Made by a program: the position numbers
Origin: an uncultured Bacilli bacterium
GTDB taxonomy: Bacteria; Bacillota_I; Bacilli_A; RF39; UBA660
NCBI GenBank assembly: GCA_947593955.1
Contig: CANQDV010000001.1
Location: 1 to 61,481 of the forward strand
DNA: 61,481 nucleotides
Direction: 5' to 3'
In this document: piece by piece, positions 36,001 to 42,000 of the stretch
Position numbering within the stretch: position 1 is the stretch's first letter
Layout of the letters: each line of letters starts with the position of its first letter

Positions 36001-39000
36001 CAATAGTTGATGCCGTTGATGTCTTAGCAACAATATCAGCAGCTTCATCCATAGTTATATTATTACCATTAAGATCTTTAAAGTTACCAGTTTGTACTCC
36101 AACTTGCCAATTACGCTCAGCTTCTGCAGCAAGAGATTGCATATCTATCATATTCTGTTTAGCCGATTCAATTGTACCAGATGTCAAATTCAACTTACGA
36201 GCAGATCTATGTAATTGAGCTTGAGAAGCTGATTTTTGAATGGTATTTAAAATTCCACTACGAGCCTTCGAATCCCCAGTTCTAGCTTGAAGAGCAGCAT
36301 CTCCTGCTTCTTTCCATGCACTAGCCTTTTTACCAGTCATACCGCCTTGGAAACCAGCATTCATACCTGTTGCAGCTCCAGTAATTGCTCCTCTTAAACC
36401 ACGACCCGAAATAGCACCTGCCACTGTACCTGTAGCTAAACCAGTTAAAGCTCCTGTTACACCTGCTAAAACTCCGCTAGTATTCTTATCATGTTTAATT
36501 CCTAAAGCATCCTTTATAAAATTAGGAGCATCTTTAGCAAACATTAATAACGCGATAATAAGGAATACTAAAGTATAAGCATTCAAATTAGTATTAGTTG
36601 CAAACAATTCACCTTTAGATAACGCTGACAATAACATCAATACAAAGTATATAATTCCCAGTCTTACAAAAATATCTAAAAATGTGGAGATAAGTTGTTT
36701 CGTCCAAGAAGCAAAAGCACCATCTTTACTAGATTTAGGATCAATATAACTCATAACAGGAACTGGTGCAATCATTTCTAATATTAACATTTTAAATAAC
36801 CTAATACCTACTTGTATAGTCATTAATATTAAAATAATAACAATAACAACCCCTGCACCTAATGCAAAGATATAATTAAAGTCATACTCATAAATTCCAT
36901 TTTTCTTATCTTTATATCTTTCCATAACATCAGATAAACTAGTAATTGCTTCTGGCCTATCCCCAGGATCTAATTGCTCTGAAGGTCTAAAAAATGCCCC
37001 TAAAGCAGTAGTTGCCATCAAATTAGCATTATCCTCTACCGTATCTGAGTTATCATTAGTTTGATTTAAAATTATTTTAGGAAGTACTGGAATAAACTCA
37101 GTTTGTACTCTTCTTAATAAAGGAAATAGATTGGGTAATAAAATAAGGAGTATAAGCATTGTAATAGCTCTACTTATTAATTTAGAAACCCCTTTTTCTT
37201 TATCAACCATAGTTTCTGGATTTACCATATATCGTAGTAAAGAAAGGATTAATTTAAAAGTCATAAATATTCCTAAAAAAACATATATTTTAGTATAAAT
37301 ATCATTAACTAATCCTGAATTTAACTCAATTGACGCAAGATCAAATAATCCTTGTAAAATCCATTCGATTACAGAATAAATGCAATAATTTATACTTGCA
37401 AACAACCCTCTAATTTGATTTTCTAAGAAGGTGGTGAATATTGACATCGATAACATAACTAATCACCCTCCTATTTAATCCCACACATTGGATCATCAAC
37501 TAAATTAATATTACCTTTAATTCCAGGTAAATTTAATAGTGTTTTAACAATTATTGGAACAAAGAAAATAGCAACAGCAGCAATACATCTTTTAACAAAT
37601 TTACCAGTTGCTTTCTTCAAAGCATCTTTATCATCATTTAAAACTACACTACCAAAATCAACTGAACCCAAAATAATTAGTAAAATTGGCACAACTATTC
37701 TAATAATGTTGATAGCATCTTGTAACATTTTATAAGCACCTGGTGTTAATAAACCATTACAATTTATGGCAAAAACAGGTTCAATAATTAACAATAACAA
37801 CATTATTAAAGCAAAAATACATTTAATTTTTCTATTTTTAAGCATAATAAACACCCCAATTGCTTAATAATCACTGTTATTATAACACAAAAATAGTAAT
37901 ATCAAAATATTTTTTAACTTCTTTTATGACTTATTATGTAAAAAGAAGAAATTTTAATTAAGTTATCGATAATTGTTTAATTAACTACTATGTTCTTATT
38001 ATAATAAAAACGAATTAAATCTTCACGATTTAACTCGCTTTTTACATTTATTATTTATTTAACAATATAAGGGTCTTCGTAAGTTCCACTACCAGAAACA
38101 TAGGTTACACTAGCATCAAAATGAGCATATAATCTAACTCCCCTAATACGGTTAGCATATTCCCTTTCAACAGTATTACTAATGTAATAAACTTCTTCTG
38201 TGTTATCAGCAACACCCGTTATTGTCCACCATTCCTCATTATTACTTGCTAGATAATTATAATTATAGCAAGAATTATCTAAAGCTTTATTACAATTAGG
38301 GTCTAAGCTAGCATTCATATAATCATACAATGGTAGTAAACTAAAGTACTGATTAGGTAAAGTGCTAGAACATTCTGTACTTCCATCTTTGCTCGTATCA
38401 TCTAAACTACGATTACCATAACAAGCAGTATGAGTAGTTATCAAACTCTTAATAATCAAATATCCCTCTTCATCGTCAACTACTTCTGTATCAATGGAAT
38501 CCCTCATTCGACTAATATCATATTGGTTAATCCCACGGTAATTATCAGTAATAATATTGAATCTATTATCCCACGTTGCTCTTAATAATTCTGGATCTCC
38601 TAAAACAACCATTTCACCATTTTCATAAATTTTAACAATACGCCAATAAAAATCACCTAATTTAATATAGTTATTAACATTATCTCCTTTAAAAACATAA
38701 ACATTCTCTAAAGTACCACTATCAGGATTAATTTGTACTGTAGCATATAATCCCTCACTAGTAGTAACAAGATTATCAGCAATAACAACATTGCTTATTG
38801 TTTTAGTTGTATAATCGGTGCCACAATCTAAAGTAGCACGATATGAATAATCATTAACTGTTTTAGTAACATACAAAGTTCCATCGCAACTAGCATTGTC
38901 TTTAGTACGTTTAGAAATATCGGTTAAATATCCATCTTTAGTTAATTTATCGGCATTAACTGTCTTTGTACCTACTGTTGGTAATTCATCTTCATGATCC

Positions 39001-42000
39001 TTAAAATAGTTCTTACCTGCTGATACTATTCGCTCTTCAATTTGACTATAACTCAAGCTCTTACTACCATTACCAACTATTAACATTAATACAATTATTA
39101 TTAATAAAATGGCTCCAACAGCTGATGCTAAAATTACAATCATTTTTTTATTATTTCTCATAAACTCACCTTCAATAGAATTATAACAAAGAACAAAAAA
39201 AAAGACAAATACATTTTATATATTTGGCTTTTTTAAATTTCTATGTATTTGATTTTTTACCGCTATCAGCCCAACAACTTATAAAATTACCATTCTGAGT
39301 GCCAGTATTTCCAACCATAGTAATTAACAAATTAACAAGAATAGGGATAAAGAATACAGCAACTGCAGCAATAGCTCTTTTTACTAATCTACTAGTAGCT
39401 CCTTTAATCTCCTTATCATCACTTGATAAAACAGCTTTTCCTAAGTCAATAGATCCCATAATAATTAACATAATTGGAATAGCCCATTGAATAATTGTTA
39501 AAATTGCCTTTAAAAAGTTAATAACCGTTTTCAAGTCACCACAATAATCATTAGCCATAAATAACATAATACTTCCTCCTTCTCTTTAAACTTATAATAC
39601 TTTATTCCATAAACAATGTCAACTTTTTTTCAATTATTTAACATTTGTTTACATTTCCTATTTCTTTATAACACCCAACTTAACAAATAAGTCAGTTAAC
39701 ATAGGTTTACTAGATCTATCATCAAGTGGTTTTATAACATGAAATACTTTTAATCCAGTTTCATATTCAAATGTATCTATATTGCCACCAGATACAAGTG
39801 TTTTATTCAATACTATTTTTTTACCTTTTAATTTATCAAAAATACCATTATCCAATTTTAATAATTTATTTAATTTTAGTATTGATGGTTCAATTAAATA
39901 AATAACATCATCGCATACACTAGGATCGCAATCATTTAAATCGACAATAACAACATTATAATTTCTTGCTTTTAATAATTGTGGCATCAAATCAACTTTA
40001 TTAACTGATACCAATGATGGATCATTAAAATAAGTAAATTCTCTTTTATTTACTTCGATAGCTAAAGCACTTTTACCATGTATTGTCTCTAATTCACGCT
40101 TCATAAGATAAGCTAAAGTTGTCGCTCCTGCATTAGATGTTACATTTTTCAAACCTATTATCTTACTAATTTGAGCAACTTGTTTAGGAGCGGTTGCCAC
40201 AGCCTGTTTGGGAGCATCCACATTATTAATTGCCACATTAGTATTATTTATTGGTGACAATTGATGAAGATAGGCAACATCTTTATAAGTATTAGGATTA
40301 GCTAGTAAATAAACTATTTCATCAAATGTTTTACCAAAATTATAAAACCCCATAGATATTAATTGTGATATAAAACTTGGATTAGAAAATTCTTCATCAT
40401 TAGGGAGCATTAATATAATTTTATCAACAGGTAATCCTATAGATAATTTTTGATAATTAGTAATATCGTGATAATTTTTCATAGCTGTTACATCAAATAC
40501 CATTCTTCCAAAAAAGAAATTAGAAAACTGGCTTATTATTTCTTCAACATCATATTCACCACGTAAAGTCTTAATAATTTCAATATTAAGTCCTGCTAAA
40601 ACTGATTCTTGTTGATTAGTTATCAAAACATTCATAATTTCACCTTCTAATAATTAACTCCTTGTACATTCCATATTATCATCTAAATCTTTATATCCTA
40701 ATTCAATTATTCTAGTCTCCCCCGAAATAGGTATTTCTATTTTGTTTCTTACAATAGGAAGAGAAAACGTTATATAAATTTTAACTTTATATATCATTCC
40801 ACGATCATTTTTTGTCGAAGCAATGTAATACCTATCTACATATCCTACTTCATTTGTAACCATGTTCCATATGTCATCACAAGTTCTATATCCTTCATTT
40901 TGTTCAATTTTATTTATAATAGCATTCTTAAAACGAAAAAATTTACCATAATTGATAACAATAGCCATAAAACCAATATATATAGTTAAAAACACTAATA
41001 CTATTTTTAATAATAATGTTCCACCTACTGATTCTCTCACTATCAATCACCTCTTATATGTAAATTATTTTAATTATTTATTTGGATCATATATTTCTTC
41101 TTCTGCTTCATTTCCCCATCTATCACCAATTTGATTTAGTATTTTAGGGACAAAGAAAGTAATAAATGCTAAAATGGCAGCAACAGCTACTACTACAACA
41201 ATTGTCATATTTAATTCTCCAGTCGCTTCTTTCACTATAAAACACTCCTTTCTACTATATTAATAATTATAACCATTTTCTAAATTTATATCAATACTTA
41301 GATACTGAAAAGCTGTAACATTGACAGTAAAAGGATTACCATAGTTCCACCACCAGTTACTACCAACATTATCATTGTTCGCCTTTCCATATTAGATAAT
41401 CTATTTTTATATTTAACTTCTCTTGCTTTATTTTGTAAACTTGAAACTGATCTTGAAAACATTAATAACTGTTGATATTTATTCTCTTGAGCTCCTAAAC
41501 TAAGACGATATAAAAGTCTCATCATACGCATAGAATCTCTAACAGGATATCTAATAGCAAAATCCATGTAAGGTTGGATAGAAGAATCTCCAGCATCAAT
41601 TCTTGCAATCATATCTCTAAGTCCTGGTTTAAATATATCCGGTGCGTCATCAATTGATTTAGATATGGCTACAGGAACAGTATAATTTTGACAAAGTATT
41701 TCTAATCCTTTCAAGTAATATGGTAACATTTGATCAATTTCATGCGTATATTTTTTATAGTGACTTTTTAAAGATATATATTGTGATTTATATATTAAAA
41801 ATGTAACCAAAACTACAGCAATACAATTAATAAATGATAAATTAGTAATAACTAATAATAACAAAATAACAAATGCATAAAATGTTGTCCTTAGTCTTTT
41901 CATAAAAAGTTGATTAGGGTCTGCTTTATCACCATATTTAGCACTTACATAAAAATCATAATCTTTTTCTTTTAATCCTCTTAAATAAATATCATTTTCA

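Follow-up and report, generated by a model that had tools for sequence, protein, structure and literature searches.

The closest described counterparts of the locus reported here are the type IV secretion systems (T4SSs) of Patescibacteria. Passages of a 2025 survey (PMC12102498) describe these systems as derived from the monoderm MPF-FATA class, chromosomal and mostly relaxase-less, carrying TrsD, PrgI/VirB3, VirB6 and VirB4 with a peptidase/lysozyme encoded downstream of virB4, and furnished with arrays of 2–11 VirB2-like pilins detected with the Pfam family PF18895; in Ca. Southlakia epibionticum ML1, according to the same passages, the T4SS and the type IV pilus are both essential, the T4SS being needed for epibiotic growth. 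Parts of a 2025 review (PMC12857230) state that VirB2 and VirB5 are absent from Gram-positive T4SSs, with Patescibacteria as the sole exception, and call the Patescibacteria system unique among monoderms in its potential for a conjugative pilus. Here we report two pilins of the PF18895 family, designated A and B, encoded on a stretch of 61,481 nucleotides from an uncultured Bacilli bacterium (GTDB lineage Bacillota_I; Bacilli_A; RF39; UBA660; GenBank assembly GCA_947593955.1, contig CANQDV010000001.1, positions 1 to 61,481), this whole stretch being referred to as the window throughout. The literature found on RF39/UBA660 describes uncultured, genome-reduced Bacilli and makes no mention of T4SSs or pili.

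The locus resembles the Patescibacteria system in that several divergent PF18895 paralogues lie near virB4, in that the host is a monoderm with a reduced genome and the system chromosomal and relaxase-less, and in that TrsD-like, VirB3/PrgI-like, VirB6 and VirB4 proteins are accompanied by a peptidase and lysozyme encoded downstream of virB4; a type IV pilus matters beside the T4SS there, and a Tad-like module stands beside it here. It differs in its host, a member of the Bacillota (Bacilli), in having only two pilins in the array, in encoding VirD4 inside the cluster and in the physical joining of the Tad-like filament module, while the cysteine pair and the syntenic thioredoxin described below are not mentioned in the passages of the survey cited above. 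With TrbC of RP4 and VirB2 of Ti, A and B share a small two-helix hairpin with a basic loop, a position beside VirB6/VirB4 and, through a putative disulfide, joined termini. Unlike those pilins they fall outside the family PF04956, would be closed by an S–S instead of a peptide bond, and belong to a monoderm envelope and to a system that is not plasmid-borne, B moreover being without a signal peptide. A further comparison is offered by the integrative conjugative elements (ICEs) of Mycoplasma, a wall-less or thin-walled relative within the Bacillota: their pilin-like protein (NF045849, Mbov_0395 family) is likewise a small membrane protein encoded just upstream of VirB4, and their Mbov_0397 VirB4 model is matched by the TrsD-like protein of the window (E 1e-16). 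The Mycoplasma system is mobile, however, whereas the window cluster is fixed in the chromosome, and the match of B to NF045849 is weak (13.9 bits against a cut-off of 40).

Two Diverged Pilins of Family PF18895

The initial annotation had proposed two paralogous VirB2-like open reading frames (ORFs) in the window. Both are present (coordinates in Table 1), and the motifs quoted for them, VFA-INCNG, MLFMANDYCGD, PMCGIK and ISCWAD, are all found in the two proteins. Aligned by BLASTP, A and B are 47% identical over 74 aa (E 5e-22). Searched against pilin profile families, the two proteins matched PF18895 (T4SS_pilin), B above the gathering cut-off (26.8 versus 26.6 bits, E 5.6e-6) and A below it, and when relatives were scanned singly (E ≤ 0.01) the same family was hit by 41 of 42 B-type proteins (best E 5e-7) and by 25 of 32 A-type proteins (best E 9e-8). 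AlphaFold models built from the family alignments show a two-helix hairpin for both proteins, in B with a pLDDT of 74 (helices given in Table 1) and in A, after a leader helix, with helices at residues 35–70 and 73–105 and a pLDDT of 77; the hydropathy profiles agree with these hairpins. Together with the adjoining VirB6 and VirB4 genes, the family matches and models uphold the proposed VirB2-like identity. In the pilin tree, A-type and B-type proteins are parted by one branch (support 100/97), with long branches among the former and short ones among the latter, and A and B are thus two anciently diverged paralogues of the PF18895 (VirB2-like) T4SS pilin family. Besides the Mycoplasma pilin-like model, an NCBIfam scan of A and B returned sub-threshold noise only, and none of the ten homologues whose cluster names were looked up was named.

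The loop between the two helices is rich in Lys and Arg in both proteins. In B this loop is nearly invariant (DLGKAV..DDKEIK.AT..L.KR), and six Lys/Arg residues were counted by hand in residues 44–64, against one in the N-terminal tail, a distribution which suggests that the loop would be cytoplasmic or, in a fiber, luminal, with both tails facing outward as in VirB2/TraA.

Translation of A was placed at the ATG at 37845 (protein MLKNRKIK...) and not at the GTG at 37854 given in the ORF list, 3 codons longer, because both the relatives and the ribosome-binding site favor the ATG. In A the first residues are then charged and give way to a hydrophobic segment and a conserved xPV(F/Y)A site, with cleavage predicted between ...EPVFA and INCNG. 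Gene B starts with the ATG at 39567, behind a strong AAGGAGGA Shine–Dalgarno sequence, and no in-frame extension is found upstream of its ORF, so that B appears to lack a Sec-type signal peptide. A prepilin-type leader for B was ruled out as well, since the N-terminus lacks a basic leader, the helix is not preceded by Gly and position +5 is not Glu. The N-terminal Cys of A was also considered as a lipoprotein cysteine, which was rejected because the residues preceding it form no lipobox in most relatives.

The assignment of one pilin to each transcription unit, also made in the initial annotation, needs revision. B has a near-consensus promoter-like site of its own, and in most relatives B is followed directly by an A-type gene and then by VirB6; A and B therefore make up a short pilin array where the Tad-like and T4SS modules meet. 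Inspection by eye of the 209-nt spacer before A (37846–38054) showed an inverted repeat (cgagttaaatc / gatttaattcg) with a T run behind it and also a TGTTATAAT extended −10 box; the repeat has few G–C pairs and for that reason was not listed by a terminator scan.

The Cysteine Pair and Its Thioredoxin-Fold Neighbors

That each pilin keeps one cysteine near either end, first noticed from the two window proteins, was confirmed in all samples of relatives. Among 42 aligned relatives of B, C9, C98 and W99 are invariant and the tails around them vary; among 32 relatives of A, C121 is invariant and C29 is kept in at least 90%, C87 of A (KRC) not being conserved. The small B proteins of 80 related loci (described in the next section) have both cysteines in 80/80 cases (79 by script, the flagged one having an N-terminal Cys on inspection). 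A profile search of 1.84 billion representatives returned 8,605 clusters at E ≤ 1e-3, and a survey of the 100 top representatives (50% identity clusters) covering both cysteine columns found both residues within a strict positional window in 95, with the N-terminal Cys slightly displaced in the remaining 5. In A-type domains in which the anchor motif was found, the first cysteine lies in C(N/E/D)(G/S)(L/I)L(G/T), ~5–25 residues before helix 1, and the second in xCG(I/L)x at the very end of the chain. In 250–520 aa proteins that bear Cys-rich ectodomains and end in a pilin domain, the two cysteines again flank that domain, so that the pair belongs to the pilin domain and not to the protein termini. 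As the N-terminal cysteine of the large fusions sits at the domain junction and not at the protein N-terminus, "hairpin staple" is a more apt description than "cyclization mimic".

A disulfide tying both tails together is the best reading of the cysteine pair, plausible but unproven and supported by its context: the cysteines are invariant amid varying tails, the tails are predicted to be extracytoplasmic, and a thioredoxin-fold lipoprotein with a CPHC site is syntenic with the pilins. This lipoprotein scores 26.0 bits against Pfam Thioredoxin (cut-off 23.5). Searches for oxidoreductases, relaxases and prepilin peptidases were run on a set of 27 genomes of ~1 Mb, and in 17 of these an orthologue of the CPHC lipoprotein lies on the same contig as the pilin, 0.2–15 kb upstream and in divergent orientation. 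The other exported proteins of the cluster have even cysteine counts (2, 2, 2, 6 and 36).

Redox proteins are part of other filament and transfer systems: the ComGC pseudopilin of Bacillus subtilis has a BdbD-dependent disulfide, and the F transfer region encodes the thioredoxin-like TrbB and TraF. The window likewise ties an extracytoplasmic thioredoxin-fold oxidoreductase to a filament/transfer machine, and a second, membrane-anchored thioredoxin-like protein beyond the VirD4 end of the cluster matches Pfam TraF (Table 1). Unlike the BdbD/ComGC case, no BdbC/DsbB-type partner was found in the 27 genomes, and the substrate would be a pilin of T4SS type instead of a type IV pilin.

At L034 (10410–13326) and L024 (9246–12313), two related loci whose T4SS genes are not beside B, the genes after B encode a UvrD-like helicase, a membrane protein of 255 aa and a secreted CPIC (CxxC) protein; the last would be a further exported redox protein near the pilin.

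Gene Order and Chromosomal Setting of the Cluster

The B profile matches 193 of 201 genomes (~96%) and 94 of 98 genera in a lineage sample with genome sizes of 0.6–1.6 Mb, a lineage that, going by record names, we take to be the order RF39. VirB4 was found in 8/8 genomes tested, at 80–96% identity; over 57 species-level genomes its median identity is 82% (range in Table 1), and that of the adjoining VirB6 goes down to a median of 32%. The identities of all cluster genes drop together from near to distant relatives, and in the only two genomes with both genes VirB4 and CTP synthase are 96% versus 88% (G205) and 82% versus 75% (G203) identical. Of the relaxase families searched, PF03432 is present in 8/27 and PF01076 in 10/27 genomes, and PF02486 and PF03389 in 0/27 each. 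A relaxase of these four families (other MOB classes being left out) was never found beside the cluster in the 27 genomes, 15 of which are without any of the four. In the window, the cluster is bordered by housekeeping genes (pyrG and those for a diacylglycerol kinase, an LCP protein and glycosyltransferases), with neither integrase nor relaxase among them, and no match was found among 72,556 plasmid records searched by megablast with the locus and by tblastn with B. Nearly all members of the lineage carry the cluster, in the chromosome and without an adjacent relaxase. This presence in 193/201 genomes, the missing adjacent relaxase, the negative plasmid search and the joint drop of identities fit a cluster inherited vertically as a whole and under strong selection; the pattern does not fit an ICE, and the earlier idea of a conjugative element was thus abandoned.

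A pCP13-like or other plasmid origin is unsupported, the plasmid collection having given no match, and a literature search on pCP13 with VirB2 found nothing useful, though pCP13 may encode a VirB2-like protein, PcpB2. In 12 of the 27 genomes (G039, G091, G129, G174 and G047 among them) there are MOBP/MOBV relaxase genes, often in multiple copies and always far from the cluster; they may belong to small mobilizable elements able to use the chromosomal T4SS in trans. Of 16 related genomes, only 4 yielded the pyrG gene (CTP synthase; 51095–52702 in the window), in agreement with the loss of de novo nucleotide synthesis that has been reported for the lineage.

A scan of species-representative genomes found a relative of B in 259 genomes, and the best 80 of these, from other species, provide the loci L001–L080. 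All 80 are from uncultured gut "Bacilli" or "Tenericutes", Clostridium sp. CAG:710 and CAG:417, Ca. Faecimonas and similar organisms. Gene order is kept in all of them as far as the contigs extend, with the TadZ-like gene directly before B in 78, VirB6 in 65 and VirB4 in 59; most of the others are cut by contig ends and four have the T4SS elsewhere. VirB6 is preceded by a gene for an A-type pilin or for an ectodomain–pilin fusion, which L005 lacks. At L015, L017, L021, L039, L043, L046, L061 and other loci the gene in the A position encodes a protein of 250–520 aa in which a signal peptide is followed by a Cys-rich ectodomain containing low-complexity linkers and, at the C-terminus, by a pilin domain, and at some loci two or three such long genes stand in tandem. 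Some relatives (G017, G109, G136 and G140) have 10–16 matches to the pilin profile per genome, numbers suggestive of enlarged arrays such as Patescibacteria are reported to have.

Read along the minus strand, the cluster of the window (Table 1) begins with a 1030-aa protein, followed by DUF5411, RcpC-like, CpaF-like ATPase and two TadB/C-like genes, a 53-aa Flp-like ORF, a 130-aa protein and the TadZ-like gene; B, the 368-aa protein and A come next, then VirB6/TrbL, the protein in VirB3 position, the TrsD-like protein, VirB4 and the M23+lysozyme hydrolase, and lastly two small anchored proteins and VirD4. The 112-aa protein in VirB3 position had no HMM match, and its VirB3-like label is taken from position and hydropathy only. 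The ORF at 34893–35495 is read as a separate TrsD-like N-terminal VirB4 domain because it matches the N-terminal part of NF045975; it overlaps the VirB4 start and has a median identity of 70% among relatives. The exported 1030-aa protein (45674–48766), which heads the Tad-like module, contains 36 Cys and Asn/Asp/Pro-rich linkers and is detectable in 18 of the 80 loci. Scanning of the cluster and flank genes within the window turned up no signal-peptidase-like cyclase of the TraF (RP4) type. A prepilin peptidase (PF01478) is present exactly once per genome in 27/27 genomes, always distant from the Tad-like cluster; ComEC is present in 24/27, and in the source genome (contig C6, 11678–12007 and 22960–23712) and a congener (G147) the prepilin peptidase lies 7–11 kb from ComEC. 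The Flp-like ORF may rely on this peptidase despite the distance.

Table 1. Positions of the pilins, the surrounding cluster and the thioredoxin-fold neighbors in the window
Feature	Coordinates	Strand	Remarks
Membrane-anchored thioredoxin-like protein, 165 aa	24207..24704	minus	CAHC site; Pfam Thioredoxin and TraF; beyond VirD4 end
VirD4-type coupling protein	27807..30137	minus	long low-complexity tail
Membrane-anchored wall hydrolase	31173..33071	minus	Peptidase_M23 and lysozyme domain (VirB1 role)
VirB4-type ATPase	33103..34896	minus	79–99% identical across 57 related species
TrsD-like protein, 200 aa	34893..35495	minus	matches positions 89–277 of Mycoplasma ICE VirB4 model NF045975, E 1e-16
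Small membrane protein, 112 aa	35419..35757	minus	VirB3/PrgI position
VirB6/TrbL-like polytopic membrane protein	35807..37456	minus	PF19597; directly downstream of A
Pilin A	37471..37845	minus	124 aa; predicted signal peptide, then two-helix hairpin; C-terminal VDDPMCGIK
Membrane-anchored protein, 368 aa, 6 Cys	38055..39161	minus	between B and A; 27/80 loci
Pilin B	39241..39567	minus	108 aa; N-terminal tail MLFMANDYC; hairpin helices 9–48 and 51–86; C-terminal tail ...FISCW
Promoter-like site	39594..39622	minus	TTGACA-17-TATTAT, near-consensus; upstream of B
Tad-like module	39658..45671	minus	DUF5411, RcpC/CpaB-like, CpaF-like ATPase, two TadB/C-like, 53-aa Flp-like, 130-aa, 325-aa TadZ-like
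Thioredoxin-fold lipoprotein	49580..50020	plus	lipobox LLSAC; DsbA-like CPHC site; divergently upstream of cluster

Assembly Model, Rival Explanations and Implications

We hold with moderate confidence that A and B are Cys-stapled PF18895 pilins heading a vertically inherited chromosomal T4SS that is coupled to a Tad-like module. Both would be inserted as helical hairpins with their tails outward, A via a cleavable signal peptide and B leaderless, with no more than a short acidic tail at its N-terminus. The CPHC thioredoxin lipoprotein would probably then oxidize the tail cysteine pair to a disulfide stapling the hairpin shut at its open end, with an outcome akin to the head-to-tail cyclization in TrbC and VirB2. 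VirB6 and VirB4 would build a stalk or pilus from A/B subunits through the thin wall, which the M23/lysozyme enzyme would open for it, and the adjoining Tad-like filament would give attachment. B is likely the main subunit, because its core is very conserved and it has a strong promoter-like site of its own, and A is likely a variable, surface-presenting or initiating subunit, since it is fast evolving, always beside VirB6 and often fused to a large Cys-rich ectodomain.

Several results weigh against this account. PF04956 (TrbC/VirB2) is matched by neither window protein, A reaching only E 0.25 and B giving no match (at E ≤ 0.01, 3 of 32 A relatives match, best E 1e-4). By itself A also stays under the 26.6-bit PF18895 cut-off (19.8 bits, E 8e-4). 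A Foldseek search with the B model against the PDB returned chance helical hairpins only (best E 3.2), and profile searches with both families against PDB sequences found no solved relative to anchor the fold. A fiber of this T4SS has never been seen. Of DsbB/BdbC (PF02600) and VKOR (PF07884), neither was found in the 27 genomes (0/27 each, positive controls detected), which leaves the route of thioredoxin re-oxidation in an anaerobe unexplained. Finally, at four loci B stays with the Tad-like module, at L034 and L037 over the full 10-kb downstream flank and at L020 and L024 over the remaining 3–5 kb of contig, VirB4 being found elsewhere in the genome of L037 and, for L034, L020 and L024, on a different contig.

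These four loci, in which no VirB6/VirB4 follows B, and the TadZ-like gene that almost always directly precedes it are the grounds for an arrangement in which A alone is a T4SS pilin and B serves the Tad-like machine, perhaps partnering the TadZ-like protein in the membrane. We judge this improbable, as B is the better PF18895 match of the two, has its own promoter-like site and is followed immediately by A and VirB6 in most loci, and as, to our knowledge, no Tad system uses such a protein. An ordinary ICE, with A and B as its mating-pair pilins, would account for VirD4, VirB4, VirB6 and a wall hydrolase all being present and could draw on the MOBP or MOBV relaxases found in 12 of the 27 genomes, through mobilization in trans. 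The near-universal presence of the pilin in genomes and genera, the conserved flanks and upstream partner gene, the lack of an adjacent integrase or relaxase, the genomes devoid of all four relaxase families, the absence of any plasmid match and the joint drop of all gene identities make such an element very hard to credit.

The other two alternatives accept a T4SS role for both proteins and concern the bond and the structure that is built. Disulfides could be intermolecular, joining the N-tail Cys of one subunit to the C-tail Cys of its neighbor (B–B or A–B) and thereby covalently cross-linking the polymer. In known T4SS pili the termini of adjacent subunits are close on the surface, the models place both tails at the same outward end of the hairpin, exactly one Cys per tail is kept in A and B, and the CPHC lipoprotein is equally compatible with such cross-links. 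Nothing favors them above an intramolecular bond, however, and in the fusion proteins the pair encloses just one pilin domain, for which an intradomain staple is the simplest reading, so that we rate cross-linking as rather unlikely. Alternatively, A and B might be membrane or stalk subunits of a T4SS translocon without an extracellular pilus, the cysteine pair steadying a short extracytoplasmic collar. Parts of the review cited above (PMC12857230) state that VirB2 is needed in most Gram-negative T4SSs, whether they form pili or not; B is most conserved in its loop and transmembrane core and not in the exposed tails, and a separate Tad-like pilus is already encoded in the cluster. This possibility deserves to be kept in view, unlikely as it seems to us in light of the frequent fusion of A-type domains to Cys-rich ectodomains of 150–400 aa, which suggests surface display, and of the arrays of up to 16 copies in some relatives, as in Patescibacteria.

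Extending the reading of A and B as stapled pilins of a chromosomal T4SS, the Tad-like module and the pilin-bearing T4SS might form one composite surface machine, indispensable to the lineage, which would fasten onto a partner cell and transfer macromolecules or nutrients via the stapled pilins. We put this forward as a speculative and, at present, doubtful proposal, drawn by analogy with the pair of T4SS and type IV pilus needed by Patescibacteria epibionts on their host cell. If true, these uncultured Bacilli would depend on cell contact, and the "Patescibacteria-only" monoderm T4SS pilus would also exist in the Bacillota, which might even be its evolutionary source. The presence of PF18895 pilins in true Bacilli is itself contrary to the view of Patescibacteria as the single Gram-positive exception. 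It raises the questions of what role a non-conjugative monoderm T4SS with pilins plays, whether abundant uncultured gut bacteria are dependent on contact, and whether a disulfide may take the place of peptide cyclization in closing a T4SS pilin; the invariant cysteine pair and its thioredoxin neighbor offer a simple biochemical handle.

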